The notes under the pieces are model-generated. The model ran no database searches, was not told the DNA's origin, and worked only from the letters and a program-made list of their open reading frames with translations. The position numbers and the translations under genes are program-made. This document shows, one piece after another, positions 9,515-49,597 of a DNA stretch of 64,000 nucleotides. This DNA is from Mobula birostris (Eukaryota), in assembly GCF_030028105.1 (NCBI RefSeq), contig NC_092371.1, positions 213,402,031 through 213,466,030 on the forward strand, given 5' to 3'. The first letter of the stretch is position 1, and each line of letters opens with the position of its first letter.

Positions 9515-9577
9515 TATTGCATTTTGTGATGTGCTATGTGGGTTTAGAATGCATTAGAGCTGGTAGTTTAGAAAGCT

Positions 9578-9709
9578 AACAACAGGAATTCTGCAGATGC
9601 TGGAAATTCAAGCAACACACATCAAAGTTGCTGGTGAACGCAGCAGGCCAGGCAGCATCTCTAGGAAGAGGTGCAGTCGACCTTTCAGGCCGAGACCCTG
9701 AATCAGGAC
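9578..9709 (-). mobile_element. Penelope pLTR-only insertion with 14-bp TSD and a decayed hammerhead motif
   Basis: TSD tagtttagaaagct at 9564-9577 and 9710-9723. Minus strand starts gtcCTGATTCagggtctcggcctGAAAggTCgactg. Confidence 0.85.
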
Positions 9710-9879
9710 TAGTTTAGAAAGCTCCCTTATACTGGGGCTTTCCCTTAAATCATGTATGATCAGAAATGTATTAGCTGAATTTTCAAAAAGAAATTGTTAT
9801 TGGTTTAATGGAAAAATAGCCTAGATGTGGGATTAATCTATTTAAAACTATTTCATCTATTACTTTAATGTCAAATACA

Positions 9880-9880
<1 letters not shown>

Positions 9881-9932
<52 letters not shown>
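9881..9932. repeat. (CA)26 microsatellite
   Basis: Directly visible. Confidence 0.97.
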
Positions 9933-9934
<2 letters not shown>

Positions 9935-10079
9935 TCCGGTTAATGGGCCATCAGTTCTTTAGGACAGCCGCTTATTTATGACAACTCTTAAAGTACAAAA
10001 ACTGATCGTGGAAGTAGTCGGGATTCCCTTTGTTTATTTGGGACACCTATGCCTCTTAATTGGGATAGGAGACTATTTA

Positions 10080-10360
10080 TATAACAATACAGTGCAGAGT
10101 GGGTCCTTCTGGCCTTCAAGCCACACTGCCTCAGCAATCCCTGACCCCAACCTAATCACAGGGCAATTTACAACGACCAGTTAGCCTACCGGTACGCCTT
10201 TGGACTGCGTGAGGAAACTGGCACACCCAGGGAAAACCTACACATTCCACATGGAGGGCCTACGGACTCCTTACAGATGGCACCAGAAAAAAGTTTCAAA
10301 CTCCAGAATACCCCGAGCTGTGATACCAGCATGCTGACTGCTACACTACCATGGCGCCCT
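10080..10360 (-). mobile_element. HE1/V-SINE-type SINE
   Basis: Reverse complement has head gggcgccatggtagtgtagcag, a V core (ggtttttccctgggtgtgccagtttcctc) and a CR1-like tail. Confidence 0.75.
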
Positions 10361-11234
10361 AATTTGCCCTTGCAAATAATTAATTGGCTATGAAGCTTTG
10401 TAATTCTAACAGTGTGAAAAATGATTGATTTGGTTATAGAGCAATAGTCAAGCATAAAATGAAATATAGTTTGGCTTATAATTGCTTCCCCCCCCCCAAA
10501 TTGCTAAAAATATTTCAAAGAGACAGGTTTTGTCATTTCTCAGTTTTAAGTTCCTCTCCAGCCATTTACTTCTCAACATGTGAGGGTCTGAACAGCTTAC
10601 AAATGAACAAAGAGCTGAATAGCGCAAGCCCTTCAAATCCAGGCTTTTAATGATTTGCATGTTTTTCTTCTGATCCCAAGACAGTGGGAGCTTGGATGTC
10701 ACCCATACCCCAAGGTTTGTCATGGGTTTCTACTTTATCGGAAGAGTTATGAATGGGATTGAATAACGTGCAATCACAAAGTGATATTATGATAGAGAGA
10801 AGATCATTGGCAATGAATCTGTATATGCTTAGGCAAAAGGAACTCTCTGAGATGTTTCATGGGCTGTGACAACCACAACTGTCTTATTTTGTGCAAGGTG
10901 TTCTTCCTGTTAAAGGTTGTTTTTCCTGTTTACTACAGTTAATTTGTTTTGATAAGCTCCTTAGTGTTAGGCTAGCTCTTCTCTGTCTGCTGGAAATAGA
11001 CTTGCAGCTGTACCCAGATAAAGACTGTGATGAGGTCTTGAGTCCAATGATACCAAAGGATTCCAAACTGAGCTTTTACTGTATTGCTTAGAATATCACT
11101 AGGTATTGATCGATGATGCATCATTGTTCATGACTACTTCTAACCTTGCAGATTTTTCGAAGGAGCCTTTAAGCTGGTAGTTATTTATCTGTTAGATTTT
11201 ATACTGAATTGCTTTGACAAAATGTAGTTTGTTT

Positions 11235-11478
11235 TCAGTATCAGGTTTATAATCACTGTGTTCTATGATGTGAAACTTGTCGTATTGCGGCAATGACGAC
11301 GTAAATAAATAATACAACAAAAGGAATAATAAGTTAACATTCATGGGTTTAGGGACCATTCAGGAACCTGATGGCAGAGGGGAAGAGAGTTCTGAATCAT
11401 TGAGTGTCTTCATACTCCTGTATTTCCCCCCTATGACAGTATTGAGAAAAGGACATGTAGGTCCTTAGTGATGGATTG
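11235..11478 (-). mobile_element. Rex1/Babar 3' tail fragment
   Basis: Same antisense tail as 3857-4200 (atcaggtttataatcactg...ccattcaggaacctgatggcagagggg). Confidence 0.65.
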
Positions 11479-12353
11479 CAGATTGAGTACCCCAATCCAA
11501 AATACTTGGGGCCGCAAGTGTTTTGAATTTTAGATATTTTTGGATTTCGGAGTATATTATGAGATAGTTTGGGATTGCCATCATTGCCAACTCTGAATTT
11601 AATGTGCCGTCTTTGTCTTACACTTGTTCATCACACATGCATACTTAACAGAATAAATATTATAAACGATTAATGAAAATATAATGTATGCAGGGTAACA
11701 AAAGCAGAATCAGGTGACTACCTGAATCAGCTGTTGAACAACAACAAACATTGGCAGGTTTTCAGTTACTGGTGTTTAATTAAAAGGTTACAGTATATTG
11801 TATTTGTATTTTACTTTTTTAAGGTTTTATGTAAGGTAGAAAAACAATCGGCATTGTAGACTTGTTCTGGTGTTAGATTTTCATCAGCAATGCTTTAAAA
11901 ATTTAATACCATTGTGTAAGGTGTAAAAACAATCGGCATCGTAGACTTTGTTCTGGTGCTAGATTTTTGTGATCAGCTTTAAAAATTTAAGTTTCTTAAG
12001 TTTCTGCAACCAGCCTGCTAAATATTCACAATCACCTTCAGTTCTCAGTTTTTTACTTACTTTATGATCAGCATACTGATAAAGTGGCTTATGTTCACCC
12101 TGACGCTGACGATATGCAATTGAGATCTTCATTTTTCACTTTATCCAGTGTTTTTCTATTTTTCATGAACTTTTCATTACATGTGTAAGGTCACTTCCCA
12201 GAACTGCCTGTGGTATACAGAGATCTGCACATTGCCTGGGAACCTTCCCAGCATCTTGTGGAATTTTTCATTTGTGACATCATGTCAGCACTCAGAAAAA
12301 TTTCGAATTTCGGGGTTTTCAGATTTTGGAATTTCGGATGAGGAGTATCGCTG
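11479..12353. mobile_element. Tigger4/Zombi-like non-autonomous DNA element
   Basis: Left end cagattgagtacccc.aatccaaaatacttgggg..aagtgttttg; both ends carry repeated ggattttcgg subterminal motifs; internal duplication of about 85 bp at 11830-11990. Confidence 0.65.
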
Positions 12354-12404
12354 AAAGCGATTTGCTAACCAGGCAGTGAGCCAAGATACAAAGGCCTTTG
12401 GAAC

Positions 12405-12500
12405 TTGCCGAAGGGTTTCGGCCGGAAACATCAATTGTACTTTTTTCCATAGATACTGCCTGGCGTGCTGAGTTCCTCCAGCATTTTGTGTGTGGTGTTT
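12405..12500 (+). mobile_element. Penelope pLTR fragment
   Basis: gaagggtttcggccggaaacatc...atagatactgcctggcgtgctgagttcctccagcattttgtg. Confidence 0.7.
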
Positions 12501-15500
12501 GAAGTGGATGTTATCAGTCTGATCAGCTTCATTGTTTCCATTCTACTGAGCTAGATCTCAATATCTTGAAACAACTGAATTAATTGGGAAGTGACATTTA
12601 TGATGGTAAGGGAGCAATATGGAGGATAATAAGTCAATAATAGCTGAAGATGTTTTCAGGAATGTACTTGCATGCTGGGCTCCTCACATGATCTTGGATG
12701 AAGATGTTCGTGGACTGTCTTTCACCGTTCTGTTGGCAGATTGCTTACCATTATTTTCAGCTGGATGGACTTGATTTTGTGGGACTATGCTAATATCTGT
12801 TGGTGGTTTTATCAGTTCAGCAGTTTGTCACTGGAGGGAGATACAAAGCAAATTTTAAGTTTCACCTTCCTGTGCTCTTCACCTGTGTACTGTGGCTGGA
12901 GCTTTATCAGTGTGCCAACCATGTGCCACTTTGTAAGGATTAAACTAGTTCCTTCAATCATTAAATATAGCACCGCAAAAATGTAGTTTTCTTGACTACT
13001 GTTGTCATATTGAAATAGATAAAATATAATGGAAAGGTAAAAATAATGGCATAGATTGATGTAGTTATGATTCAGATGGTGCACTTTTGTCATAGAATAG
13101 CCAACGAGCCGGGATCAATAAAGATAGCCCACAATCTCACTGAGGTTTCCTCCCCAGTTCTGAAGGTTGCTTGGGCATTGTAGCTTACCCCGTGATTAGC
13201 CTGGGACTAAATCAGGAATCGCTGGCCGCCGTTGCTCAAAGGGCCTGAAGAGCCTATCCTGCGCTGTTTCTCAAATCAATCAGTCAATCAATAGAATTAT
13301 TTGTGCACATCTGACAAAAAAATGAAGTTCTGAAAATGTCTAAAAAGGCCTGTGTTTAGATATTATGAGAAAACATAATGCAAAACATTCAGTCAGATAA
13401 AAACCAAGTAGCAATTTACTGGAGTGTTTAAATAACTGATTATTAGACTAATGGAAAATTGAATTGTGATTTTTAATAAATTCTGGTTCTTTGTGAGCAT
13501 TATAAAAGCTTCTGTATAAACTGAAGATTAATAAAATATAGCAATGATATAACTACATTTGTTCTGTTAATCTTTGTGAGCTGCATATTTGAGAGGAATA
13601 AAATGAACTAATGGAACTACGTAAATTTACACAAAATTTTGAATCAGAAATAGTACTTTTATCCATGATATTTATGCTGAAGTACAAAGTGCTTATTATG
13701 TCTTATATTAAGAGGAGCCCCTTTTAACCTACCAAAGGAAATGATAGCTGCCCCCCTACTAATTATAGCTGCTACAATAAGAAACATTATATATTCATGG
13801 AGGGCCCTATGGTACAATGCACTTTACTGCAGGATGGGATCTTTTGCTATTGTCATAATGCTAATCACAATACTGTGAAGTAACATCAAGCTGAGGGTAG
13901 GTGCTTTGTTACTGAAGGAAATAAAATGGCAATAAAATCAAGTCAAGTTACCCTCTTTTTCCCCCTCTCAACCCCGATTGATTAATGTTGCAGAAACCAA
14001 CACAAAACCAAGGGCAGAAAAATGGGTATTGTAAAAACAGGCGTTCAACCTCCAAAAAGGGAGAAAAATTACCTTATTTGTATTCAAGAATGGCCCAAGA
14101 GGCAATTCTTTTACTTAAAGATGTTTTATTTCTGCATTTCTAAGAGATTAGGAACAGGTGACACATTTTCCTTCAACCCAGGAATGAGGCAGTTCTCGAG
14201 TATTGAAGTTAACATCATTAGAAGAAGCATTTAAGTCTGAGACTACTTTTTAGGTGAAATACAATTAATTGTATTAAGTTTTTGTTATTAGGCCTTTAAG
14301 CCCTTTGGGTTTTATTCTGACATCAGAATTCAGCGTAACAAATTTAGATATGATTTTTCAAGATGAATTTTCTCTGACATTTAAGCTACTTTTTCTAATT
14401 ATGTTGTCAAATTGTGAATACGAAACATAGCTTAAGATTATTTCGAACTTTGAAAGCCTGAAAGACCCAGTATGTTGTATAGCTCATTTGTACAAAGGAC
14501 AGCATTTCTCTCATCTACAGATAATGCTATTTAATATATAAATCAGAAGGATATTTTTATTTCAAATGTACAATATGTTAAAATGGATAATTTCTCATTG
14601 CATTTTAAAAAACAAAGTGCTAAACTAAAGGATGCATTTAGTGATATTTCAACAATAATTAAAGGGGGGGGAGGGAGAGGGAGACACTGACATAATGCAG
14701 GAAACATTGATGCCAAATGATATACAGGGTGATTCCAGTTTCACGTTTATTATCATGGGCACACTTTATCAGGATGTAAATGCCATGAAAATTTGGCTTT
14801 TTGTAGCAGCACAATCAATACATTTCAAACATGACAATCATAACTTGCATGAACAAATTAATGTACATTATACATAACTTACATGACACAATGAACAAAA
14901 TTGACATAACAGCGTTAATGCAATTGAGTAACATGTAGTCCAAGGTAGAATTGGGGTTTTCCAGGTTGGTTCAAGAGCCCGACAGCAATGGAAGGAAACT
15001 TCAGATGAGCCTTGAGGTGTGGATCTTCAGGCTCTTGAACCTAAGAATCACTCTTGAACCTAAGAATCAGGCATAGTCTGGATGGTGGAATCTGTGATGA
15101 TGGATGTTGCCTTTCTGTGATGTTACCCCTTGTAGGGAGACCTCCTCAACCATCAATTTGATAATAACGTAATTGATTATTGTGGTAATACCATGATAGG
15201 CTCTTGATTAATCAGGGCATCAAAGATGAAGGCAGGAAAATGGCATTATGAGTGGATGGAGCAGACTCGATGGGCTGAGTGGCCTAATTGTGCTCCTATG
15301 TTTTATGGTCATATAGTCCTATAATCTATTCCAATTATGTTGAGATGTAAAATAAACATTGGGTTATTTTCTTTCATTAAGATAATGAGTGCTGTGCAAA
15401 CTGAAGTGTCCGGCAGAGAGAGCAGATGGGCCTTGCTTTTATGGTCTATCTGAAAGATGGTGTTCCGATGAAGCAGTATTGGTAACTGATGGTATTTACC

Positions 15501-16016
15501 TGGCTTTCCATTTTAGGATGTTAAAATAATAGAATGAAACAGTGAAATTCACTCTAGCTCAGTAGTAGATACTTAAAAATAAAATAGTAATAAGAAATCC
15601 CAAAGGAATTTATGGATATGTTTGTAGATGTACCTGTCTGGGAAACATATTTTTCAATGTTAAACGAAGGCCTGTTTTGATGGTATTTCTTCTGGCATGA
15701 TTACTGTGAATCATGGATATGATCCATTTCAAGTTATTTTGATGCAGCTTAATTTTTGGGAACAGTGCATCCTTGTAGATAATTATGGGCAGGCTTGCCT
15801 TCCACATAAAAGGTGCACAGCTGAAGTTAAAAAGAGTTTGTATTTGGAAATGAAATGGTTCATCTCAGGACTACCAGAGCAAGCACATTTTAAATAAATG
15901 CACTAAACACCAATTGCAGAGGCGCAGTTAAATCTGTATTACAAGATTACTAGAGACACAAGGCACTGCAGATGCTAGAATCTGGAGCAAACATGAATTA
16001 CTAGAGGAACCCAAAG

Positions 16017-18334
16017 GGAAACGAGTTAGGACAAGTGACAGAAGCTTGTGTAGGGGAGCACTTTGGTTCCAGTGATCATAACACCATTAGTTTCAACTTG
16101 ATCATGGACAAGGATAGATCTGGTCCAAGGGCTGAGGTTCTTAACTGGAAGAAGACCAAATTTGAAGAAATGAGAAAAGATCTAAAAAGCGTGGATTGGG
16201 ACAGGTTGTTCTCTGGCATGGATGTGATCAGTAGGTGGGAAGCCTTCAAAGCAGAAATTTTGAGAGTGCATAATTTGTATGTTCCTGTCAGGATTAAAGG
16301 CAAGTTGAATAGGAATAAGGAACCTTGGTTCTCAAGGGATATTGCAACTCTGATAAAGAAGAAGAGGGAGTTGTATGACGTGTATAGGAAGCAGGGAGTA
16401 AATAAGGTGCTTGAGGAGTATAAGAAATGCAAGAAAATACTTAAGAAAGAAATCAGGAGGGCTAAAAGAAGACATGAGGTTGCCTTGGCAGTCAAAGTGA
16501 AGGATAATCCAAAGAGCTTTTACAGGTATAATAAGAGCAAAAGGATTGTAAGGGATAAAATTGGTCCTCTTGAAGATCAGAGTGGTTGGCTATGTGCGGA
16601 ACCAAAGGAAATGGGGGAGATCTTAAATAGGTTTTTTGCGTCTGTGTTTACTAAGGAAACTGGCATGAAGTCTATGGAATTAAGGGAAACAAGTAGTGAG
16701 ATCATGGAAACTGTACAGATCGAAAAGGAGGAGGTCCTTGCTGTCTTGCGGAAAATTAAAGTGGATGAATCCCCGGGACCTGACAGGGTGTTCCCTCGGA
16801 CCTTGAAGGAGACCAGTGTTGAAATTGCAGGGGCCCTGGCAGAAATATTTAAAATGTCGCTGTCTACAGGTGAGGTGACAGAGGATTGGAGAGTGGCTCA
16901 TGTTGTTCCGTTGTTTAAAAAAGGATCGAAAAGTAATCTGGGAAATTATAGGCCAGTAAGTTTAACGTTGGTAGTAGGTAAGTTATTGGAGGGAGTACTA
17001 AGAGACAGAATCTACAAGCATTTGGATAGATGGGGACTTATTAGGGAGAGTCAACATGGCTTTGTGCGTGGTAGGTCATGTTTGACCAATCTATTGGAGT
17101 TTTTCGAGGAGGTTACCAGGAAAGTGGATGAAGGGAAGGCAGTGGATATTGTCTACATGGACTTCAGTAAGGCCTTTGACAAGGTCCCGCATGGGAGGTT
17201 AGTTAGGAAAATTCAGTCGCTAGGTATACATGGAGAGATGGTAAATTGGATTAGACATTGGCTCGATGGAAGAAGCCAGAGAGTGGTGGTAGAGAATTGC
17301 TTCTCTGAGTGGAGGCCTGTGACTAGTGGTGTGCCACAGGGATCAGTGCTGGGTCCATTGTTATTTGTCATCTATATCAATGATCTGGATGATAATGTGG
17401 TAAATTGGATCAGCAAGTTTGCTGATGATACGAAGATTGGAGGTGTAGTAGGACAGTGAGGAAGGTTTTCAGAGCCTGCAGAGGGACTTGGACCAGCTGG
17501 AAAAATGGGCTGAAAAATGGCAGATGGAGTTTAATACTGACAAGTGTGAGGTATTGCACGTTGGAAGGACAAACCAATGTAGAACATACAGGGTTAATGG
17601 TAAGGCACTGAGGAGTGCAGTGGAACAGAGGGATCTGGGAATACAGATACAAAATTCCCTAAAAGTGGCGTCACAGGTAGATAGGGTCGTAAAGAGAGCT
17701 TTTGGTACATTGGCCTTTATTAATCAAAGTATTGAGTATAGGAGCTGGAATGTTATGATGAGGTTGTATAAGGCATTGGTGAAGCCAAATCTGGAGTATT
17801 GTGTTCAGTTTTGGTCACCAAATTACGGGAAGGATATAAATAAGGTTGAAAGAGTGCAGAGAAGGTTTACAAGGATATTGCGGGGACTTGAGAAACTCCG
17901 TTACAGAGAAAGGTTGAATAGGTTAGGACTTTATTCCCTGGAGCGTAGAAGAATGAGGGGAGATTTGATAGAGGTATATAAAATTATGATGGGTATAGAT
18001 AGAGTGAATGCAAGCAGGCTTTTTCCACTGAGGCAAGGGGAGAAAAATACCAGAGGACATGGGTTAAGGGTGAGGGGGGAAAAGTTTAAAGGGAACATTG
18101 GGGGGGCTTCTTCACACAGAGAGTGGTGGGAGTATGGAATGAGCTGCCAGGCAAGGTGGTAAATGCGGGTTCTTTTTTAACATTTAAGAATAATTTGGAC
18201 AGATACATGGATGGGAGGTGTATGGAAGGATATGGTCCGTGTGCAGGTCAGTGGGACTAGGCAGAAAATAGTTCAGCACAGCCAAGAAGGGCCAAAAGGC
18301 CTGTTTCTGTGCTGTAGTTTCTATGGCTTCTATG
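16017..18334 (+). mobile_element. Young 5'-truncated CR1 LINE (end of APE domain, RT, 3' UTR)
   Basis: ORFs 16035-17459 and 17488-18162 with [44 protein letters not shown] and FADD; frameshifts near 17450 and 18105; ttctatg terminal repeats. Confidence 0.95.
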
Positions 18335-18339
18335 GACTG

Positions 18340-19010: not shown

Positions 19011-19039
19011 GTGTGAAAATAGAGAACCCATTTAAGTAT

Positions 19040-21200: not shown

Positions 21201-21382
21201 TTTCCTCTTCACTCTGTCAAAGCAATAAAGAGATGTTTTTAAAAAAGTGCCAAAGAATTATTAGTTTGTGTGGTTTTCTACATAAAATTCTGTGATAAAT
21301 CTAGGATTATTTTATTTTGTTTTATTCAGGGCTGCGATACCCTTTACAACCTAATACAGTGTATCACCTATATTCTATAGAG

Positions 21383-21462
21383 CAGGGGTTCCCAACCTTT
21401 TTTATACTGTGGACCAACACCATTAAGTGAAGGGTCCATGGACCCCACATTGGGAACCCCTG
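21383..21462. mobile_element. About 80-bp hAT/Charlie-type MITE
   Basis: TIR caggggttcccaa...ttgggaacccctg; degenerate 8-bp flanks ctatagag/ctagaaag. Confidence 0.8.
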
Positions 21463-22300: not shown

Positions 22301-22309
22301 TCAGAATAT

Positions 22310-24540
22310 CTTTCATCTTTCAGGGCATCGGGCCCCGATGATGTACCTCTAGGGCATTGCGAACTTGTGCCAACCAACTGGCGGAAGTGTTCAAGGACAT
22401 TTTCGTTTCTCGCTGCTGCATTCGGAGGTTCATAGAAACACAGAAAATAGATGCAGGAGTAGGCCATTTGGTCCTTCGAGCCTGCACCACCATTCAGTAT
22501 GATCATGGCTGATCATCCAACTCAGAATCCTGTACCTGCCTTCTCTCCATACCCCTGATCCCTTTAGCTACAAGGGCCATATCTAATTCCCTCTTAAATA
22601 TAGCCAATGAACAGGCCTCAACTGTTTCCTGTGGCAGAGAATTTCACAGATTCACCACTCTCTGTGTGAAGAAGTTATTCCTAATCTCGGTCCTAAAAGG
22701 CTTCCCCTTTATCCTCAAACTGTGACCCCTCGTTCTGGACTTCCCCAACATCGGGAACAATCTTCCTGCATCTAGCCTGTCCAATCCCTTTAGGATTTTA
22801 TACGTTTCAATAAGATCCCCCCTCAATCTTCTAAATTCCAGCGAGTATAAGCCTAGTCGATCCAGTCTTTCATCATATGAAAGTCCTGCCATCCCAGGAA
22901 TCAATCTGGTGAACCTTCTTTGTACTCCCTCTATGGCAAGGATGTCTTTCCTCAGATTAGGGGACCAAAACTGCACACAATACTCCAGGTGTGGTCTCAC
23001 CAAGGCCTTGACAACTGCAGTAGTACCTCCCTGCTCCTGTACTCGAATCCTCTTGCTATGAATGCCAGCATACCATTCGCCTTTTTCACTGCCTGCTGTA
23101 CCTGCATGCCCACTTTCAATGACTGGTGTATAATGACACCCAGGTCTCGTTGCACCTCCCCTTTTCCTAATCAGCCACCGTTCCCACCTGCTTCAATAGG
23201 GCGACAATCATACCAGTGCCCAAAAAGAGCAGGATGAGCTGCCTGAACAACTGTTGCCCCATTGCACTCACACTTATTGTGATGAAGAGCTTTGAGAGGT
23301 TGGTCATGGCCAGAATCAACTCTCCTAAGCAAGAACCTGCACCTGCTGCAATTTGCCGATCACTACAGTAGATCCAAAGCGGATACAATCTCACTGGCTC
23401 ACCACTTGATCTTGGATCACCTAGACAATAGCAATACCTATATCAGGCTGCTCTTTATTGATTACAACTCAGGATTCAGCTCAGTCATACCCTCAGTTCT
23501 AGTCAACAAGCCCCACAAGCCAGGCCTTTGTACCTCCCTCTGCAACTGGATCCTTGACTTCCTCATCCGGAGACCACTGCCTGTGCGGGTTGGAGGTTGA
23601 TCAGAGACAATCAACACTGGCGCACCTCAAGGATGCATGCGTAGCCGCTGCTGTACTCTCTCTACACTCACACCTGTGTGGCTATGCACAGCTCAAAAGC
23701 CATCTATAAATTTGCCCACGACGCAGTATTGTTGGCGGAATTTCAGATAGTGAGGAGGAGGCATACAGGAGAGAGGTATAGCAGCTGATTGACTGGTGCT
23801 GCAACAACAGCCTTGCACTGGGCACTAGTAAGACCAAAGAGTTGATTGTGGAGTTCAGGAAAGGGAGGTCAAGGGAACAGATCCCAGTCCCCATCGAAGG
23901 ATCAGAAGTGGGAAGGGTGAGCAGTTTCAAGTTCCTGGGTGTCAACATCTCTGAAGATCTATCTTGGGCCCAACCTATTGATGCAATTACAGGGAAGGCA
24001 CAACAGTGTCTATATTTCTTTTGATATTTGAAGAGTCTTGGTATGTCACCAAAGACACTTTCTCAAATTTCTACAGATGTACCATGGAGAGCATTCTAAC
24101 TGATTATTGTTTCACCATCTGATATGGAGGGGCCACTGCACAGAATTGGAAAAAGCTGCAGAAAGTTGCAAACTTAGCCAGCTTCAACATGTGCCGTATC
24201 GAGGATATCTTCAAAAGGCGATGCCTGAGAAAGGTGGCATCCATCATTAAGGACCCCCATCAGCCAGGACATGCCCTCTTCTCAATGCAACCATGAAGGA
24301 GGAGCTTTAGAAGCCTGAAGACACACACTCAATGATTATATTCTTCCCCACAGCCATTAATATTCTGAATGGAAAATAACCCATGTACACTATCTCAATT
24401 TTTTTCTCTCCTTTTTTCATTGCTTACTTAATTTCTTATATATATAGTAAATTATAGTTTATTATGTATTGCAATGTACTACTGCTGCAAAACAGCTTAC
24501 TTTATGATACATGCCAATGATATTAAATCTGATTCTGATA
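22310..24540 (+). mobile_element. Rex1/Babar LINE (RT to 3' end), interrupted by a CR1
   Basis: ASGPD..CANQLAEVFKDIF resumes at about 23180 with VPTCF; YIRLLFIDYNSGF, CNWILDFL, GAPQG, FKFLGVNISEDLSW; gattctgat tail. Confidence 0.88.
22431..23179 (-). mobile_element. CR1 LINE 3' fragment inserted antisense into Rex1
   Basis: Minus ORF 22644-23003 (VRPHLEYCVQFWSP...RRLRGDLIETYKI); catagaaac tail at 22431. Confidence 0.93.
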
Positions 24541-27379: not shown

Positions 27380-27505
27380 AAACACGATATTCTACAGATG
27401 CTGGAAATCCACAGTACACACATAAAGTGCTGGCAGAGCTCAGCATGTCAGGCAGCATCAATGAAGAATGAAGAATCAATATTTCGGGCTGAGACCCTGA
27501 TCAGA
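27380..27505 (-). mobile_element. Penelope pLTR fragment
   Basis: tctacagatgctggaaatcc...ggcagcatc...atttcgggctgagaccct. Confidence 0.7.
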
Positions 27506-34070: not shown

Positions 34071-34409
34071 ATATAACTAAACCATTATGGGTCCTGGTGA
34101 CAGGATGGAATGCCAGTGTGGGTTGACTAATCATTCAGTACGAAAAATCATTAACAACTCATTAACTGAAACATATGTGAGATTGGGCCTTGTACTAAAA
34201 AACCACAAATCAAAGTTCTCTGCAATCTTTCCCACGACAATGAGGCCCTGAAAAACATGAACAATTTCCCATCTATTGGGAGCCATTTTAAACAAAGGCA
34301 AACACTTGCAATTGAATGGCTCTGTTTCTTGTCATTGTATTCTTGTCAGAGCTTTATTGCTCATCTCGTAGTTTTGCATGAGTATATATAGGGTATAATC
34401 TTTTTCATT

Positions 34410-34494
34410 ATGCTGCCTGGCCTGCTGCGTTCACCAGCATTTTTTGTGTGTGTTGCTTGAATTTCCAGCATCTGCAGATTTCCTCGTATTTGTG
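34410..34494 (+). mobile_element. 85-bp Penelope pLTR 3' piece with 13-bp TSD
   Basis: TSD aatctttttcatt at 34397-34409 and 34495-34507. Confidence 0.85.
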
Positions 34495-35597
34495 AATCTT
34501 TTTCATTGCGTTGTTTCCTCTCAGAGCTGAAGGCACAGGGAAGTCTGTTTTCTCTTCATACATTTCACTAACTTCATTGTCAACACCTCACTGCAACTCC
34601 TAAATCATCCAAAACTTGAATCCAAAATGATTGTTATGTAATACTGTTTATGTTGTTTTGAATTGGATTTGATTTTGCTTGGGTAGCTTGGCCGCAGAAC
34701 AATGAAATCACCCAGACAGAATTCTGGCACGGTAACGTGGCTTGTTGCAATACTTCAGATTTCCATTTTGGCTGGGATAGTCTATTGACCCGTACAAAGC
34801 AAACTTCAAAAGGTCTGTTGGCTTTCCTAGGAATTTATTAAGCTGCTTAAGTTTACGCAGAGAGCCACGTGCTCTGTTAGTGCTTCACAAATATTGGGGT
34901 TAACTGGGATCTTGTCACCAGTGAAACTGGCTTCAAGTGTACACATGCTAACTGCACTTTGCTTAGCTAGGCATGATTCAGGTTGGTTGTATTACGGTTT
35001 AATCAACATAAGTCTGAGCAGGTACCAGTTTCAAATCAGCACTGCTTGTTTATCAAGGCTGGAGAATTGTTTCTTCAAGCATTTCCTTTTGGTGACATAT
35101 ATTAACATATATTTGCATTCCTCGGGAGAAACTAAACCTAGAATTTTCTTGGAGAAGTGTATGAACAGTTCCAAATTGGTACCTTTAAAAATCTAGCTTA
35201 AATATACATTATTAAATTAAATTAAATGTAGCCTCACAAAGGACAGTATATTACTGCAAAATATGCTGTTGTGTCAGCCAAAATTGTACCTTTACTTAAA
35301 AAGATGGGTCAGATAAATTGCTAATTGGGTTCTCAGTTGATCAGTTGGTTTGAAGAAAAGGCAATACGTACCTTTTGACAAGTGCGTTCAGTACAAATAG
35401 TATTTTTTAAGCAGATCACCAATCACAATAAAATTATTTCTCTATTCATTTTTATTAAAATATTTTTGTTTCTCAAAGATTTCTTTAACTTAACATCTTA
35501 AGTTTACATTTAGTCACAGTAAGCATCAAGAACACATGCTTTCTATTAATATTTCATAATTAACAGCACTCAACTATAGACAACATGTTAATTGTTA

Positions 35598-35803
35598 GCA
35601 ACACACACAGAATGCTGGAAGAACTCAGGAGGCCAGGCAGCATCTATGGAAAAGAGTTCAGTTGACATTTTGGGCTGACACCCTTCGGCAGGACTGGGAA
35701 CGTCGACTGCACTCTTTTCCACAGATGCTGCTTGGCCTGTTGAGTTCCTCCAGCATTTTGTGTGTTGTTTGGATTTCCAGCATCTGCAGATTTTCTCTTG
35801 TTT
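35598..35803. mobile_element. Head-to-head inverted Penelope pLTR pair with 13-bp TSD (1 mismatch)
   Basis: Flanks atgttaattgtta (35585-35597) and atgttcattgtta (35804-35816); the left half is the reverse complement of the right half. Confidence 0.85.
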
Positions 35804-35922
35804 ATGTTCATTGTTAATCCATTTTGCTCACCAAGCATTCATTATTAACTGCAAAAGATATATTACAGTGCTGTTACACACTGAAACCTGCAAATGTATC
35901 AGCCTATGTTTTTGATGTGCAG

Positions 35923-36029
35923 GTATGCGGCAAGGAAACGATGTTGGCTCTCAGTACCGGTCAGTCATTTATCCGTACACCAAGGAGCAGATGGCTGCGG
36001 CTCTGAAATCTAAAGAAGTCTTTCAGGAG
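35923..36029 (+). CDS. msra: Methionine sulfoxide reductase A, internal coding exon (vertebrate exon 5 equivalent)
   Basis: Acceptor gatgtgcag| and donor |gtactg; 107 nt, in frame with the previous exon. Translates (G)[35 protein letters not shown], with the MsrA RQGNDxGxQYRS motif. Confidence 0.97.
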
Positions 36030-36545: not shown

Positions 36546-37017
36546 TTTTAGATGATAGAATGAAGATTCTAGCTGGTTGTTGCGTTTGAATAAAATAAAG
36601 CAGTAACATAGAGCTTGGTATTGAAAATTGATATTATACAAATGAATCTAAATATGATATCCAAAATGTTATCTCAGCTGTAACACCAGAGAAGAATGAA
36701 CATTTATTTTTTGTTTCCTAAAAGCAATTTGTCAGACATTGGTGCTCTAGTGAATTTTTGAACTGAATTGAACAAAATTGCATTTTACCATAATTTAAAT
36801 TTATGCAGCCTGACATTAGTGTATACTCTCTGTGACCCCATCCACTCCACCATTATCTTATCCACAGAAAACACTCAATGAACTTGCAAAGCAAACAAAC
36901 ACCATCACAGTGGTTACCCTGTTGGACAAGTATAGATTGATTAATCCATCTTAAATCCCACCAAAGTTGTTTGAGGATTTGAAATTGCTTTCCAAAATTA
37001 ATAAACTATTTTCAAAG

Positions 37018-38240
37018 TAACATACAGAAAATGCTGGAGGGAACTCAGCAGGACAGGTGATATCTATGAAAATGAATAAACAGCCCATGTGTCGGGCTGA
37101 GACCCTTCTTCAGGACTGGAAAGAAAGGGAGAAGACACCAGAATAAAAAATGTGGGGGGAGGGGAGGGAGGATAGCTGGAAGGTGATAGATAAAGCCAAG
37201 TGAGTGGGAAAGATAATGGGCAGGAGAGGAAGGAATTTGATAGGAGAGGAGAGTGAATCATCAAAGAAAAGGAAGGAGGAGGGGACCCAGTGGGAGATGA
37301 TGGGCAGGTGAGAAGAGGAGAGAGGCCAGAGTGGGGAATACAAGGAGAGGAGAGGGGGGTAGGGAAGGAGAAATTGATGTTCGTGCCATCAGGTTGGAGG
37401 CTACCCAGATAGAATATAGGTGTTGCTCCTCCATCCTGAGGGTGGTCTCATTGTGGCACCGGAGGAGGCCATAGACTGGCATGTCGGAATGGGAATGGGA
37501 ATCGGCCTGAAACGTCGACTGCACCTCTTCCTACAGATGCTGCCTGGCCTGCTGCGTTCACCAGCAACTTTGATGTGTGTTGCTTGAATTTCCAGCATCT
37601 GCAGAATTCCTGTTTGCGTTTATTGGTATTATAATGTTTGGCCACTGGGAAGTTCTGCTTTTGGCGGATGGAGAGAAAGTGCTGAGCGAAGCTGTCCCCC
37701 AGTTGCGACGGGTCTCACATGTACAGGAGGCCACACCAGGAGCACTGGACACCAGTAGAAGACATCAGCAGCACTCACAACACGCTGGAGGAACTCAGCA
37801 GGTTGGGCAGCATCCGTGGAAAAGAACAGACAACGTTTCAGGCTGGAACCCTTTGACAGGACCTGACGAAGGGTTCCGGCCCGAAACGTCTGTTCTTTTC
37901 CACAGATGCTACCCGACCTGCTGAGTTCCTCCAGTGTGTTGTGAGTGTTGCTTTGACCCCAGCATCTGCAGAGTATTTTGTGAAGATATCAGCAGATTTG
38001 CAGGCCAAGTGCTGCCTCACCTGGAAGGGCTGTTTGGGGCCCTAGATGGAGGTGAATGGGCAGGTGTAAGGTCACTTTGGCCACTTGCAGGGATAAGTAG
38101 TGGAGAGGGACGAATCATCAATGGAATCATGAAGGGAGCAATCCCTGCAGAAAGCAGGGGTGGGATAAGGCTGTACAGAAATTTTGTTGTAGTACGATCC
38201 CTTTGGAGATGGCAGAAGTTGCGGAGCATGATGTGTTGGT
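37018..38240 (-). mobile_element. Penelope-like element (GIY-YIG region plus pLTR) with two nested pLTR inserts
   Basis: Minus strand encodes SHSHSDMPVYGLLRCHNETTLRMEEQHL and is colinear with the copy at 49598-50425; inserts at about 37503-37620 and 37768-37980. Confidence 0.82.
37863..37890 (+). ncRNA. Minimal type I hammerhead ribozyme core (Penelope-type); stem I disrupted in this copy
   Basis: CTGACGA-a-GGG-ttccgg-CCC-GAAA-cg-TC: conserved core boxes, stem II and palindromic ACGT stem III. Confidence 0.6.
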
Positions 38241-40914: not shown

Positions 40915-41190
40915 CGATTAGCCTTATTTGTCACATGTACATCGAAAGATAAAGTGAAATGCATCATTGTGTCACCGAGCAACATGAGCAACATTGCGGG
41001 CTGTCCGCGAGTGTTGCCAGGCTTCCAGCGCCAACGTAGCTTGCCCACAACTTGCTAGCCCTAACCTGTGTTGTGTGTCTTTGGAATGTGGGAGGAAAGT
41101 GGAGCACCCAGAGGAAAGCCCCACGGTCACGGGGAGAACGTGAATCTGGTTCACTAGCACTGTAATAGTATTACGCTACTGTGCCACTCC
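40915..41190 (-). mobile_element. HE1/V-SINE-related fragment with a different tail
   Basis: tctttggaatgtgggaggaaagtggagcacccagaggaaagccccacggtcacggggagaac is the reverse complement of the V core. Confidence 0.7.
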
Positions 41191-41267
41191 AGTGCTGTTG
41201 CCGCATTCTGACTCGTACGCAGTGATTGCTTACTTTTAGGCAATGATTCTGATGTGCACACTAAATC

Positions 41268-41508
41268 AGGGGTAAATGCAAGCAGGCTTTTTCCACTGAG
41301 GTTGGCGGGACTACAGGGAAAGGTCATGGGTTAAGGGTTGAAAGGTGAAAAGTTGAAGGGGAATATCCCCAATCAAAGGGTCGTGAGAGTGTGGAACAAG
41401 CTGCCAGTACAAGTGCAGGTCGATGGGAGCAGGCAGTTTAAAGGATTCAGCATGGACTAGAGGGGGCCAAAGGGCCTGTTTCTGTGCTGTACTTCTCTAT
41501 GACTCTAC
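41268..41508 (+). mobile_element. CR1 3' end fragment
   Basis: aatgcaagcaggctttttccactgag...gggcctgtttctgtgctgta, as at 18007-18320. Confidence 0.8.
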
Positions 41509-43327
41509 AGTAAGCTAGATGGATGGTGACAAGAAAAAAAAATCACATCTTTAAAACCACTGACTAAAATTCTTTCCGCCGGTTGCTTTTTTGGGTTGTG
41601 CTGTTACACGCATAACTGCCATTTTCCATTATTATTCATGAAGAACAAAATGTATTCTGCTTATGAAGAATATAATGTATTTTAAAAAGAGGGGAAATTA
41701 ATTAAAATGTGTAGTGGTAGATAGGATCAAAAGGATGTTAGTAAGCTAACAGTTCCATGAAGATGGATGTATTTAACTCACTGTGTTATTTTTATATGTT
41801 GATCATTTAGTCGGGCTGTGTGACTGCTTCATATTTCTGATTTTGTTTATTTAAATATGATCATGCTGAAGTTAAATATGCTTAAAATATGAATGAATGA
41901 TGCTGAATATTTGACTGTTTTATAGCTGACATCTTCATACTGCACACACTATCTTGAATGTAATCTGTAGCAGTTTAGACAATTAGACCACACGTATTCA
42001 GTCCAGGCTCACTGCCTCTTTGCTTTTCTGTCCCTCTGCATTACGTCTTATTGCTTTAATTGTCACTGAAATCAAGAAGCTGGACAGTAAGAATTTTTCA
42101 AGGAAATAATGTAGAGTATCAGAACTTTACAGTTAATCTACTTTATTGAATAGAACAATATTTTTCACGGTGGCTCTCACTGAAATAAGAACACAAGAAA
42201 TAGGAGCAGGAGTAGGCCATCTGGTCCCTTAAGCCTGCTCAATAAGATCATGGCTAATCTAGCCAGAGTATCTTCCCCCTGCTTTCTTCACCCGCCTCTT
42301 CCACCCGTCCCCCTATTCCCCCCCTCCTCAGTCCTCCTCCCCTCCCCCCATACGCTTTCTCCTCTCCCCTCTCCCTTACCTCCCTTCTAACATTCCTCTG
42401 ATCCTCCCTAAGCTACACATTTGAAGGGCCAAGTGGCCTAATTCTGCTCCTATGCACAAAAAATAAACAAAGCATTGGTCTTTTTTTCTGTCTCTGCTCA
42501 GTAGCTTTTAGGGAAGCTATTGTTTGGCTAAATGGGCTGAAAATTTCCGCAGACACGGGAGATTCTGCAGATGCTAGAAATCTTTGAGCAACACGTACAA
42601 AGTAGTGGAAGAATTTTGTTTATCCAGCATTTTGTGGGTATTGCAGAAGATTTCTACACAGCTGCCCCTTCAGCAGAGGACTGAGGAGTAGCTCTGATGG
42701 AATTTCAAGCATGATACCTGATCATACCTTAATAAAAAATCTATCTGCACGTTTTCTGTCTCTCCTCATTGATTTCTTGTCACATTTTTGTTTCAGCTTT
42801 CCCTGTTAAATTCATCTGTCTGTATTTATAATGGATTATGCCTGTGACCTCATTTTCTTGATCGTAGTCTAAAAAATGAAAAAGCTGCAGTTTCATATAA
42901 TTAAATTTAACCTTTAATAATTAAGCTTACAAATTTAAAAAATCAAAGTTTTCATTTAAAGATTGCAACTTTTCCATTTTAGAGTTAATACTAATGTCTA
43001 TATCTGTGAATCCTGAACTGAGTTTACATTGTTGAATTTTAGCATGTGTATTTTGTCTAAATCTCCAGGATATTTCACTGATAGCTGTGCTGAAACAGTA
43101 CCTTCCTGAGATGCATAGCACCTGTGCTTATATTGTTTCTTAAAGAATTTATGAAATACAAGGTTACATTTTTATTTGGTAGTGTCCTTATCAATATGGA
43201 AGAGTAAATACTGTGCAATATCAATTCTATATCTGTTGTAACCACCAGACTGAAGTTAGTAAACATACATATTGAAGCCAGTAAACAACATATTGAATAG
43301 GCAAAAGCAACTTGGTTTTAAATTATA

Positions 43328-44845: not shown

Positions 44846-44859
44846 TGTGAAAGGAAAGG

Positions 44860-45900
44860 AATGAATATTCTGCATGGAGGTCGGTGACCAGTGGTGTGCC
44901 TCAGGGATCTGTTCTGGGACCCCTACTCTTCGTGAATTTATAAATGACCTGGATGAGGAAGTGGAGGGATGGGTTAGTAAGTTTGCTGATGACACAAAGG
45001 TTGGAGGTGTTGTGGATAGTGTGGAGGGCTGTCAGAGGTTACAGCGGGACATTGACAGGATGCAAAACTGGGCTGAGAAGTGGCAGATGGAGTTCGACCT
45101 AGATAAGTGTGAAGTGGTTCATTTTGGTAGGTCAAATATGATGGCAGGATATAGTATTAATGGTAAGACTCTTGGCAGTGTGGAGGATCAGAGGGATCTT
45201 GGGGTCCGAGTCCATAGGACACTCAAAGCAGCTGTGCAGGTTGACTCTGTGGTTAAGAAGGCATACGGTGTATTGGCCTTCATTAATTGTGGCATTGAAT
45301 TTAGGAGCCAAGAGATAATGTTGCAGCTATATAGGACCCTGGTCAGACCCCACTTGGAGTACTGTGCTCAGTTCTGGTCACCTCACTACAGGAAGGATGT
45401 GGAAGCCATAGAAAGGGTGCAGAGGAGATTTACAAGGATGTTGCCTGGATTGGGGAGCATGCCTTATGAAAGCAGGTTGAGTGAACTCGACCTTTTCTCC
45501 TTGGAGCAACAGAGAATGAGAGGTGACCTGATAGAGGTGTATAAGATTATGAGAGGCATTGATCGTGTGGATAGTCAGAGGCTTTTTCCCAGGGCTGAAA
45601 TGGTTGCTACAAGAGGACACAGGTTTAAGGTGCTGGGGAGCAGGTACAGAGGAGATGTCAGGGGTAAGTTTTTTTACTCAGAGAGTGGTGAGTGCGTGGA
45701 ATGGGCTGCTGGCAACGGTGGTGGAGGCAGATACGATGGGGTTTTTTAAGAGACTTTTGGATAAGTACATGGAACTTAGAAAAATAGAGGGCTATGGAGA
45801 AGCCTAGTAATTTCTAAGATAGGGACATGTTTGGCACAACTTTGTGGGCCGAAGGGCCTGTATTGTGCTGTAGATTTTCTATGTTTCTGTGTCTCTATGA
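44860..45900 (+). mobile_element. Young CR1 LINE 3' fragment
   Basis: ORF 44874-45749 with [17 protein letters not shown] and LVRPHLEYCAQFWSP; ttctatgtttctgtg tail. Confidence 0.95.
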
Positions 45901-46224
45901 ATTCTCTCCTTCTATATGACATAGACCATCCATTGTGGCTACTTCAACTCATGTAAATAATTGTGCCAAGGATTCTAAATGAAGGCATGGGTAAGGGAGA
46001 TACAAAGAGAAAGGAAGGTGCTTAGGCTTTTTATTTCTTCATTTCACATCCAAGTCTTAGCCTATTGATCAGTGGCTTTCGGGTTCCAGCTTTTATTGCA
46101 GAGACTGGAGCACGCAGTCCAGGCTGGCGCTGAAATATTATTGTGCAGTGGAGATGTTAGACTGTTAAATGTGCTACTCTCCAAATGAGATGGTAAGCTA
46201 TTGAGATGAACAACAAAGGTATTG

Positions 46225-47029
46225 TTGAGATTATTGTCATATGCAGATATACATGTATGCAAGTATGCAGTGAAAAACTTACTTGCAGCAGCATTCACAA
46301 GAAAAGCATAAATTAAGCATAGTACACAATTTTACAAGAAAGAATTCAAAAAAAGTAGAACAGAAGTCCATTTTGGTGCAAAGTGATCATAATGTTGCTA
46401 AACTGTAGTGATTAGGGCTTTACTGGTTGGTTCAGAACTGAATAGTTGAAGGGAAGTTGCTAATCTTGAACTGGATGGTGTGGTATATCAGGCTTCTGTA
46501 CTTCCTGCCCAATGGTAGCTGCAACGCATGGCATGATTTGGATGGTGGTGATCTTTGATGACTTATCATCTATCTTCGAAGCTAGATGCTGGTTTCCTGA
46601 GGCAGTGCCTCCTGTAGGCAGTACCGGCGGTAGGGAGGGATGTGCCTTTGACGTATTCAGAGGAATCCAGTACTCTCTGAAGCTTCCGACATGCATGTGA
46701 ATCGCTGTATGAGGCCAAGATGCAACCAGTCAGGATGCCTTCAACAGTAAATTCATCTCTAGACATTTGTTAGAGTGACGAGCCAACCTTTACTAATTTG
46801 CTAAGAAAGTAAAAGATGCTGGAGCACTTTCCTTGTGGTTGCATCTATGTGCTGGGCCGAGGACAGGTCTTCTAATATATTAGGAATTTAAAGCTCCATT
46901 GTAGATTAGTGCATGTTTGGCCCTGTTCCCCTTCCTGAAGTCAACAATTAGCTGTTTAGTTTTGCTGACGTTGAGCAAGAGATTGTTGTTTATAGCTCCA
47001 TGCAACCAGGTGTCCAATGGGGTGCTGAC
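46225..47029 (-). mobile_element. Rex1/Babar LINE 3' fragment, degenerate
   Basis: Minus TVEGILTGCILASY..RKLQRV; tail shared with 54520-54680. Confidence 0.75.
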
Positions 47030-47032
47030 TTA

Positions 47033-47747
47033 AGGCTGATTTATACTTGTGCATACTAGCCTACGCAAGTGGGCTACGCCATTGTGAGCATTTATACTTG
47101 TGCGTTGGTGTGTCTGCGTCGCTCTGCAATTCACCGCCAAAATGCTCTTTGGCGGTGGGGTTTCTATGCCACTGTATGAAACTCAACACGAAGAAACTCA
47201 AACTTCAAACAATGGCGACTGAAGCTGAAGGAGGGTGAATTTTCTGTGCTTGTCCGGCCACTGAGAGACATGGATGAGGAAATGCATTTCAAATATTTTC
47301 GGATGTCGGCAGATAGATTTGACGATTTGGTTCATCGTCTCCAACCATTTATTTCGCGTCAGTATATGCACAGTGTGCTCAGAGACTGGCAATCGCCATT
47401 CGAGTTTTAGCTTCAGGTGGAAGTCAACAGGCTGTAGCAGCTAGCTACAAACTGGCATCAAGCACAGGGTCCTCCATAATTCCGGAGGTCTGTAAAGCTT
47501 TATGGAAAGCATTGCAGCCAGAGTTCCTTCCCTGCCCTTCATTTGCCCAATGGGAAGCTATTGCAGCGTAGGAGGAAATGCGATGTTCCCAAGTGGACCA
47601 ATCACAGTTGTTTCAGTCTGCATCGCCGCAATGCATAGTCACTTTTTGGGAGAGGTGCGCGTTAGGCTATGGCATAGGGTTCGGCGTAGGGTATGCTGCT
47701 ACGCCGTACCTACGGTGTACATTTGACGCTCAAGTATAAATCAGCCT
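47033..47747 (+). mobile_element. PIF/Harbinger non-autonomous element with a transposase N-terminal remnant
   Basis: Perfect 17-bp TIR aggctgatttatacttg/caagtataaatcagcct and TTA TSD (47030-47032, 47748-47750). Internal [21 protein letters not shown]...[38 protein letters not shown]. Confidence 0.93.
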
Positions 47748-47819
47748 TTATTGATTATCAATGAGCCACAGGAGAGTAGGTGAATCCTCCATCTCTCTTC
47801 CAACTACTGAGGCAAATTA

Positions 47820-47980
47820 CACTGGTCTAGAAAAGTTGTGAACCCCGTAGAATTTTCTCTATTTCTGCATAAATATGTCCTAAAATGTGATCAGATCTTC
47901 ACGTAAGTCCTAAAACTAGATAAAGAGAACACAATTAAATAAATAAAACACAAACATTATACTTGTTCATTTATTTATTG
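47820..47980. mobile_element. Tc1-type terminal fragment
   Basis: TA|cactggtctagaaaagttgtgaacccc resembles a Tc1 end; no partner end seen. Confidence 0.55.
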
Positions 47981-47989
47981 TGAATTCAA

Positions 47990-48530
47990 ATTCAAGACAA
48001 ATCAAATAAGATCAAGTTTAATTATTCAAACCATATGTAAATACAGATGAATGAGACAGCGTCCTTCTGGGGCCAAGGAGCAAAACGTTCAAAATAGTGA
48101 GTAATACAGTTCCAAATGCAGACCAAATAAGCATATTCACTTAAAAAAAACATGTATAGTGCAAGACCCTGAGCGACAATATCCAGCAATTGATGGTAGA
48201 GTCTCCCGGCAGTGTACAGATGCGCGCAATCCAGCCTGTCATTCCACCACTCAAACACAAGAGGGCAGCAATGAAGGGCGAGGCCAGGCCCTAGCTGATC
48301 TCAACCACTTCCGCCTCAGCCAACCCTTTGACGCCTTGGCCGGCTCTGCTGCTGACACCAGTCCAGCTACTCAGATCAACAAGCAGCTCACTGATGGAGC
48401 AGCCCTGAAGGCTGCAGGACCCGATGTTTTTGGAGCAGAACTGTCTTTGGATCGTTAAAAACAAATTTTACATCGAAAAAAGCACCTTGAGACCGCTGTG
48501 TTCGCACGCGCCACCACCTTACTGGAAATT
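47990..48530 (-). mobile_element. LINE-tailed (Rex1-type) non-coding repeat
   Basis: Antisense 3' tail (tcaagtttaattatt...atgaatgagacagcgtcc) resembling the tail at 5980-6088. Confidence 0.45.
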
Positions 48531-48899
48531 TTAAGTTAAAATATTTCTAATGATTTTATATCACTTAAGGGCTCATGTACAAAGATCGGGTAACGAATTA
48601 GAAGATTAGGTCTGTATATTGTCCTTTGATTGCTGTCTGCAGAAACTAATAGAAGTGAAACAATGAAATAATTGATTGCTGACGCAGTTTTCAGAGATGA
48701 ACAAAACACAATGCCCTGTCCCAAGGGTTTTATTAGTTATTTTGGGCCACAAATTAAGGAAAGGCAACCAAATTGTGATTTGATTTGGAAATTCTTTGCG
48801 TGTGTTTCAAACTCTCAATATTGAATCGTTAGAACGATGGGGTAAGAAAATCAGACACCTTCATGACCTCATTATTTCTTCCCCAACCCAACAAAGAAA

Positions 48900-49597
48900 C
48901 CCTACACATCTTTGTTAATTACGAGAACATGTACTGAGAACAGGATCTGTAGGAAGAGGTGCAGTCGACGTTTCAGGCCGAGACCCTTCGTCAGGTCTCG
49001 GCCTGAAACGTCGACTGCACCTCTTTCTACAGATGCTGCCTGGCCTGCTGCGTTCACCAGCAACTTTGATGTGTGTTGCTTGAGTTTCCAGCATCTGCAG
49101 AGTTGCTGTTGTTTACTGAGAACAGGAGATGGGATGTTATGTTGAAGTTTTGTAAGACATTGGTGAGGCCCAATTTGGAGTATTGTGTCACCTACAATAC
49201 CTACAGGAAAGATATCAATAAGATTGAAAGAGTGCAAAGAAAATTTACAAGAAAAGTTACCAGGACTTCAGGACTGAAGTTATAAGGAAAGGCTGAACAG
49301 GTCTGTATTTTATTCCCTAGAGCACAGAAGAATGAGGGGAGATTTGAAAGAGATATTTTTATATAAAATTATGAGGGGTATAGATAAGGGTAAATGGAAG
49401 CAGGCTTTTTCCACAAAGGTTGGGTGAGGCTAGAGCTAGAGGTCATGTGTTAAGGGTTAAGGGTGAAAGATGAAACATTTAGGGGAACATGAGGGTGAAC
49501 TTCTTCACTCAGAGGGTGGTGAGAGTGTGGAATGAGGGGTCAGCGTAAGTGAATGATGCGGGTTTGATTTCAACACTTAAGAAAAATTTGGATAAGT
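48900..49597 (+). mobile_element. CR1 3' fragment, degenerate
   Basis: WDVMLKFCKTLVRPNLEYCV..DINKIERVQRKFTR. Confidence 0.85.
48946..49113. mobile_element. Inverted Penelope pLTR pair with 14-bp TSD, inserted into CR1
   Basis: TSD tactgagaacagga at 48932-48945 and 49114-49127. Palindrome about 48945-49034; minus strand reads CTGACGAagggtctcggcctGAAACGTCgactg. Confidence 0.88.

Follow-up and report, generated by a model that had tools for sequence, protein, structure and literature searches.

Short hammerhead-associated insertions in the Mobula birostris genome as probable shortest products of an abundant Penelope-like element with a preferred 5' end

Penelope-like elements of the endonuclease-bearing (EN+) Neptune/Nematis type are known, from passages of PMC8557442 and PMC3846280, to leave 5'-truncated insertions that carry a pseudo-long terminal repeat (pLTR), an adjacent inverted copy and a tail of 30-40 bp. 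Minimal type I hammerhead ribozymes are found in the pLTRs of metazoan Penelope-like elements, where excerpts of Cervera and De la Pena (2014, PMC4209133) report mostly solo motifs together with opposite-strand pairs 100-700 bp apart, which are ascribed to truncated elements, and we find the same arrangement here. The role of the Penelope hammerhead has been described as unresolved (PMC11167929), and part of PMC2377424 describes the regeneration of the pLTR in these elements as open. We analysed a window of 64,000 nucleotides from Mobula birostris (assembly GCF_030028105.1, contig NC_092371.1, positions 213,402,031 to 213,466,030) that contains several short inserts of this kind, flanked by target site duplications (TSDs), and compared them with copies elsewhere in the genome. 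On balance we think it probable that an abundant, protein-coding Penelope element gave rise to the inserts as its shortest products, that they are not a separate family, and that the reverse transcriptase (RT) of the element likely initiates at fixed positions immediately below the hammerhead and copies a linear, uncleaved RNA until it runs off at the 5' end, which is likely the transcription start.

On sequence evidence the inserts are the 3' ends of an autonomous and very abundant Penelope element of the Neptune type. A 30-base piece of the 3' end of the unit has 24,328 exact matches in the 4.0-Gb genome, and a 30-base piece of the start of the open reading frame (ORF) has 284. Many copies extend upstream, through a 3' untranslated region (UTR) of ~430 nt, into an ORF that encodes an RT plus, at the C terminus, a GIY-YIG endonuclease, and copy L109 retains an open frame of 563 amino acids with both domains (PF00078, E 6e-6; PF01541, E 0.003; both under the Pfam gathering cut-offs). 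In the translations a CX4CxxC linker precedes the endonuclease and two cysteines lie between GIY and YIG; a passage of PMC8557442 names a CX2-5CxxC linker with two cysteines so placed as a hallmark of Neptune/Nematis. The 3' end of the unit runs on into the ORF start in full-length copies, and the pLTR 3' end of the anole element likewise continues into its ORF start (PMC11167929). The features expected of EN+ Penelope insertions were present as well: an upstream pLTR of 0-1032 nt, an inverted arm in 58 of 99 insertions, two 3' ends ~30 nt apart, and a TSD of at least 10 bp in 77 of the 99 insertions and in 5 of 14 near-complete elements. Set beside Neptune/Nematis as portrayed in parts of PMC8557442 and PMC3846280, the element is alike in its domains and linker, variable pLTR, TSDs, heavy truncation and inverted 5' arm without the last ~30 bp. 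It is unlike them in that the TSD mode is 13-14 bp, versus 8-10 bp in rotifers, in that more than half of the sampled insertions have less than 170 nt per direct arm, and in having a base-precise 5' end with jumps from it, neither of which was met in the available portions of the published descriptions. As a separate observation, counting positions (r) in all copies as bases upstream of the unit 3' end, 10 of the 14 near-complete elements end at about r26-35 and not at the tail end, and some copies have a tandem duplication of 210-230 bp in the 5' part of the ORF (both L229-L258).

The 5' ends were mapped in an unselected sample, for which all 100 listed places of the 24,328 3'-end matches were fetched, giving 99 insertions. 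The rows fell from 101 to 99 by removal of L159(-), a duplicate, and of the second arm of L096, and the end of L110 was reset from r149 to r131 after its junction had been read. Copies ending at r32 are missing from this sample because all of its members carry the r30-r1 pattern. On the unit, the 5' strand of hammerhead stem I occupies r131-128, the CUGA begins at r127 and the predicted cut is at r99. The 5' peak corresponds to the first bases of stem I (r130-131) and is two bases wide. Among the arms at risk, r128-137 holds the end of 23 of 72 direct arms, for the most part at r130-131, and of 15 of 36 inverted arms, and the end hazard per nucleotide is 0.032 at r128-137 versus 0.004 at r138-170 and 0.0005 at r171-430 (p 1.5e-10). 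Genome-wide, A131 is absent in 3,766 of the 44,276 exact matches that reach r130 (8.5%), and T132 in 4,200 of the 40,510 that reach r131 (10.4%), against a background, taken from 129 fetched read-through copies, of 4 without A131 (3%) and 1 without T132 (1%). Forty of the 4,200, read by eye, comprised 27 true breaks, 11 older subfamilies and 2 point variants. Plain random 5' truncation, without any favoured end, would suit the 42 of 99 direct arms that pass r170 in a flat spread up to 2.3 kb, and strong 5' truncation is typical of the group according to a passage of PMC8557442; however, the end rate at r128-137 is 30- to 60-fold above that at r171-1000 and the genome-wide steps fall at r130-132, which makes this explanation barely credible overall, and for the short class the end-rate peak rules it out. 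The original prediction, made from the window, was therefore right that the 5' ends are not merely random truncations; the peak that it expected at the ribozyme does exist, but at the 5' foot of the hammerhead and not at the cut site.

That these pLTR ends carry a minimal type I hammerhead motif is supported by matches across the family: the consensus that had been proposed fits it, with 159 distinct minimal-hammerhead hits in the 1.2 Mb made up of the window and the fetched loci, versus 0 in a shuffle. The core (CUGAnGA, GAAA and UH) and stems I and II are present at the level of the family. An Rfam scan of the 64,000-nucleotide window gave no hammerhead match at E<=1, just hairpin-like microRNA (miRNA) matches below the gathering scores. 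The motifs resemble those in excerpts of PMC4209133 in the 4-5 bp stem I, the unpaired base before stem II, the absence of a loop 3 and the palindromic 15.2-16.2. In contrast to those, the putative ribozyme here has a short stem II (4-5 bp), and its young subfamily has a G-U at 10.1-11.1. An intact minimal motif is found in 39 of the 65 young copies that reach r131, and 37 of these 39 have the G-U at this normally conserved pair. For one natural copy the predicted minimum of the monomer (-12.0 kcal/mol) misfolds the core, and the hammerhead fold is predicted at -7.7 kcal/mol.

The original prediction had further proposed that short pLTR RNAs, once cut by the ribozyme, undergo retroposition in trans and form a self-propagating family resembling short interspersed nuclear elements (SINEs) or retrozymes. 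In its favour the ends are non-random, with a defined 5' end at r130-131 such as a SINE-like family would have; many young motifs are intact; and pLTR-related retrozymes have been reported in vertebrates, including one chondrichthyan (bioRxiv 10.64898/2026.07.22.740005). There is also a cluster at the cut, where 9 of 89 direct arms end at r95-103 (p 3e-4), two of them exactly at r99. However, the main class starts ~32 nt upstream of the cut, and since an RNA cut at r99 is unable to template a copy that starts at r131, self-cleavage did not make this class. The nine copies at r95-103 are all head-to-head joins beside a palindrome; of the 15 direct-only short copies, 0 have their start in this interval (Fisher 0.09). 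A comparison of 51 short with 36 ORF-reaching copies revealed no diagnostic base (smallest p 0.04, uncorrected, over 14 variable sites), so the differences from full-length pLTRs on which a separate family would depend are lacking in this comparison. TSDs of at least 10 bp flank 48 of the 57 short copies and 29 of the 42 long ones, with a median of 14 in both; because short and ORF-bearing copies match in TSDs and bases, the long TSD is a property of the whole family and does not mark a separate subfamily. Neither the window nor the 99 insertions contained a head-to-tail array of the unit, although no genome-wide tandem search was made, and a hot deletion junction turned out to be many different joins, with at most 4 of 21 matches alike. 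Together with the G-U pair in nearly all intact young motifs, these results leave a separate non-autonomous SINE-like family highly doubtful. The copies resemble the non-LTR (long terminal repeat) retrozymes in being short, non-coding, dispersed monomers homologous to the pLTR with a type I hammerhead, but the definition of those asks for repeats arranged head-to-tail, of which two or more consecutive units carry a complete ribozyme (bioRxiv 10.64898/2026.07.22.740005). Here the copies are solo or head-to-head, with no such consecutive units, and are indistinguishable from the ends of autonomous elements. The short copies terminate at the RT start site, and for the anole Poseidon element (PAc) ORF sequence past that site is required (PMC11167929); the stumps, which lack the ORF-start stretch below the start site, would be dead on arrival.

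The arrangement of the arms points to how the stumps may have been made. The 3' ends are fixed at two sites, r~0 and r~32, and the inverted arms start mostly at r24-45. Across the 58 insertions with both arms, the arm lengths are correlated (Spearman 0.61), and the two arms of an insertion tend to share a length class (34/4/6/14, Fisher 7e-6). We propose that the element protein would nick both target strands 13-14 bp apart and that both nicked strands would prime, one at each internal start site, giving head-to-head pairs. The cDNAs, made on a linear uncleaved transcript, would run off at r131, the physical RNA end and likely the transcription start, and would then be joined to the target or to each other. 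After run-off the RT would either integrate the stump or jump to a downstream part of the RNA and copy back to r131, while long and full-length copies would derive from templates continuing upstream of r131, either circular RNA (produced by ribozyme cleavage and ligation) or read-through RNA. Long copies likely need an RNA extending upstream of r131, circular or read-through. In L1 twin priming, second-strand priming gives an inverted arm, and in the minus-strand strong-stop step of LTR elements the RT runs off at the RNA 5' end and then jumps; unlike in those systems, the arms here overlap the same 3' sequence instead of abutting, the target DNA primes, and the jump destinations are scattered. 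A circular template has been proposed for Penelope elements in a passage of PMC4209133. Work on PAc in vitro (Frangieh et al. 2024, PMC11167929) has reported that the RT starts at two neighbouring internal sites, that both strands are cleaved and extended, that uncleaved RNA serves as template and that the template 5' end sets the length of the cDNA; such steps would yield stumps. PAc belongs to a different clade, and genomic 5' ends and jumps are not mapped in the main text of that paper. The pattern also differs from Perere-3, where, in the part of PMC8501958 concerned, ribozyme cut sites abut the TSD.

Internal template jumps were followed in 70 ORF-start copies (30, plus 40 more of 100 listed places, of the 284). 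A jump from the pLTR to a downstream part of the element is present in 38 of the 70, and 36 of 40 junctions were analysed, omitting the second junctions of L234 and L251 and two that land in the ORF. Ten of the 36 pLTR-landing jumps are at r128-133, mostly at A131 (p 1e-10), with 0-10 unrelated bases between and scattered destinations. Six r131-jump copies come back as far as r117, and all six stop at r125-132. Of the 23 other jump copies, 8 have an upstream arm whose end lies no more than 5 nt from that copy's own junction (0 of 10,000 permutations), so jumps appear to mark template 5' ends generally. Long jump-free copies seldom end their upstream pLTR at r124-137 (2 of 30, versus 27 of 76 terminal arms; Fisher 0.003), and the majority extend well past this interval; 11 of 30 loci of one locus set were kept out of this group as jump copies (7), a chimera (1) or duplicates (3).

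These second passes bear on another possibility, in which the template extends upstream of r131 and the RT pauses or folds back at the foot of stem I to give the peak. Stem I begins precisely at r131, a cDNA with its end at this base could pair with the stem I partner that it carries itself, and many r131 junctions are head-to-head joins, all of which would suit a pause. A pause fixed by the sequence, however, would act on every pass, whereas an RNA end would act just on templates that have it, and the stops, rare on the second pass of long elements and repeated in the r131-jump copies, therefore favour an RNA end. The shared length class of the two arms of an insertion also speaks against a pause, as does its position, since an RT would be expected to pause where it enters a helix from the 3' side, near r95-108. 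We consider a pause unlikely. As a further observation, two unrelated insertions (L092 and L097) have near-identical, element-derived extra bases between an inverted arm at r134 and a direct arm at r131, a recurrent micro-jump.

If r131 is an RNA end, it might also be a processed one, produced by exonuclease trimming to a protein-protected hammerhead or as a by-product of a sequence resembling a 3' splice site. The sequence upstream is acceptor-like by the consensus that we assume, with a branch-point-like word, a pyrimidine tract and AG at r135-134 and r131-130, and the intron of D. virilis Penelope ends at the 5' end of helix I according to an excerpt of PMC4209133. However, the junctions retain the AG and start at A131, no common upstream exon is seen, the jump donors are scattered with no GT after them, and among the 15 of 45 RNA-contig joints that were listed no skip ends at r131. 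A processed end is thus quite improbable, and neither splicing nor back-splicing was accepted as the origin of the r131 junctions, there being no shared exon and no GT donor. For a transcription start, which we prefer, A131 fits what we take to be the initiator-like motif, YYA(+1)NWYY; by itself the motif is weak evidence because it overlaps stem I. An internal initiator-type promoter lies in the pLTR of D. virilis Penelope (a passage of PMC2377424).

Several points weigh against a run-off from the transcription start. That start is likely, being read from DNA fossils and from a short motif overlapping stem I, and as r131 is the exact edge of a helix, structure may contribute. An extra G, as expected from copying of a cap, was clear in only about 2 of roughly 15 direct-only junctions inspected, and a smaller cluster of ends lies at the cut site. 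The sample of 99 is confined to one contig, within its first 12.6 Mb, and to copies with the r30-r1 pattern. Among the r131-jump copies, 4 of 10 end short of r117 and are hence uninformative; in 2 of the 23 other jump copies an arm runs past the junction of that copy; and the jump-free copies are known for just 1.5-5 kb downstream.

As a repeat family the element is ordinary: solo and opposite-strand hammerheads, inverted arms, tails and pLTR-related retrozymes are all in print already. Its value is mechanistic, and lies in the fixed run-off point, the jumps from it and its near absence in long copies. Our literature search found no report of a fixed 5' end or of jumps in Penelope elements; subscription papers, Repbase and Dfam lay outside the search, and two supplements (to PMC11167929 and to the bioRxiv preprint) may bear on the point. 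A more tentative possibility is that the copies form a base-resolution record of the Penelope cycle, in which a strong-stop-like cDNA of ~130 nt, made on the linear primary transcript, is integrated or jumps, and pLTR-bearing full-length copies come from a circle closed at the hammerhead cut. If this were true, the hammerhead would decide, as a switch, whether a dead stump or a live copy results, and the regeneration of the pLTR would have an explanation. Base-level predictions follow, namely an RNA 5' end at r131 and a seamless junction at r99 in circles. A caution also follows, in that a pLTR monomer taken for a retrozyme can be no more than the stump of an autonomous element.

About a third of the ORF-start copies are mini-elements that join ORF-start +115-275 to pLTR r157-336 (L199-L268, for example L202, L205, L214, L226, L251 and L264). 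Their loops are ~270-560 nt, there is a hot donor near +175, and the joins mostly differ from one copy to the next. Jumps on fragments of RNA, or the copying of small RNA circles, could have produced these mini-elements, which could themselves serve as non-autonomous templates. An amplified mini-element from one deletion junction was rejected on the differing joins of its 21 genome-wide matches, this junction being the one checked of several hot donor sites.

In the window itself, all four TSD-flanked inserts of the original prediction were confirmed at their coordinates, and 0 of 5000 random 130-nt intervals of the window had a flush 13-nt pair with one mismatch or fewer. They are pLTR ends, as had been claimed, but two are head-to-head pairs of an inverted and a direct arm and not single units, and none of the four has an intact ribozyme, although hammerhead cores had been attributed to them. 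The first (9578-9709, minus strand, 132 bp; TSDs 9564-9577 and 9710-9723, 14/14) is a direct-only end of the young subfamily, from r130 to the 3' end, whose core is altered at two conserved places. It does start at the motif, as had been noted, but 31 nt upstream of the predicted cut (between 9679 and 9678) and not at it. Its altered core reads as a 4-base micro-inversion of its own CUGA, with similar forms at L001, L008 and L021. The second (34410-34494, plus strand, 85 bp; TSDs 34397-34409 and 34495-34507, 13/13) is direct-only and starts at r79, below the hammerhead, which it thus lacks, in agreement with the truncation described for it. The third (35598-35803, 206 bp; TSDs 35585-35597 and 35804-35816, 12/13) has an inverted arm of an older subfamily (35598-35695, minus strand, r33-r131) with a decayed hammerhead core, and a direct arm (35699-35803, plus strand) from r105 to the 3' end. 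The fourth (48946-49113, 168 bp; TSDs 48932-48945 and 49114-49127, 14/14) has a core solely in its inverted arm (48946-48998, minus strand, r79-r131), with stem I paired at 3 of 4 positions, and a direct arm (48994-49113, plus strand) from r118 to the 3' end.

At least six further fragments without a clear TSD had been counted; we found nine, and one of these has a TSD of 14 bp with 1 mismatch (37758-37771 and 37982-37995). This fifth TSD-flanked insert (37772-37981) is a head-to-head pair of an older subfamily, with an inverted arm to r130 and a direct arm from r128. Together with a young pLTR end (37502-37614, plus strand, r114-r2, no TSD found) it splits an older Penelope 3' remnant with endonuclease region, 3' UTR and pLTR (37011-38239, minus strand). 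A second older 3' remnant (49594-50449, minus strand) has endonuclease-region homology and a pLTR end, with 72% DNA identity to the ORF of copy L106 and no Pfam hit. The remaining five are decayed pLTR ends: 2641-2751 (plus strand, r106 to the 3' end) and 12406-12503 (plus strand, r126-r28), for both of which no TSD was found; 27381-27504 (minus strand, from ~r128), with just a 9-bp repeat alongside; a small 3' fragment at 42562-42603 (minus strand); and 62743-62843 (plus strand, r131-r32), of an older subfamily with a pyrimidine-rich 3' UTR upstream.

The surroundings of the inserts include an exon with AG/GT edges (35923-36029, plus strand) that encodes part of a peptide methionine sulfoxide reductase (PF01625, E 3.6e-7), and the insert at 35598 is intronic, ~110 bp upstream of it. 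Remnants of CR1-like long interspersed nuclear elements (LINEs) with RT frames lie at 16005-18162, 44865-45749, 22644-23192 and 54966-55382, the frame at 16005-17456 matching PF00078 (E 2.5e-27), and the insert at 48946 is located at the edge of a CR1-like remnant. A tandem repeat with a period of ~44 bp occupies 4689-5131. A near-perfect hairpin of ~110 bp (8522-8633), with miRNA-model matches below the cut-off, adjoins a frame of 127 amino acids without a Pfam match (8788-9171) and is probably a remnant of a DNA transposon or a miniature inverted-repeat transposable element (MITE).

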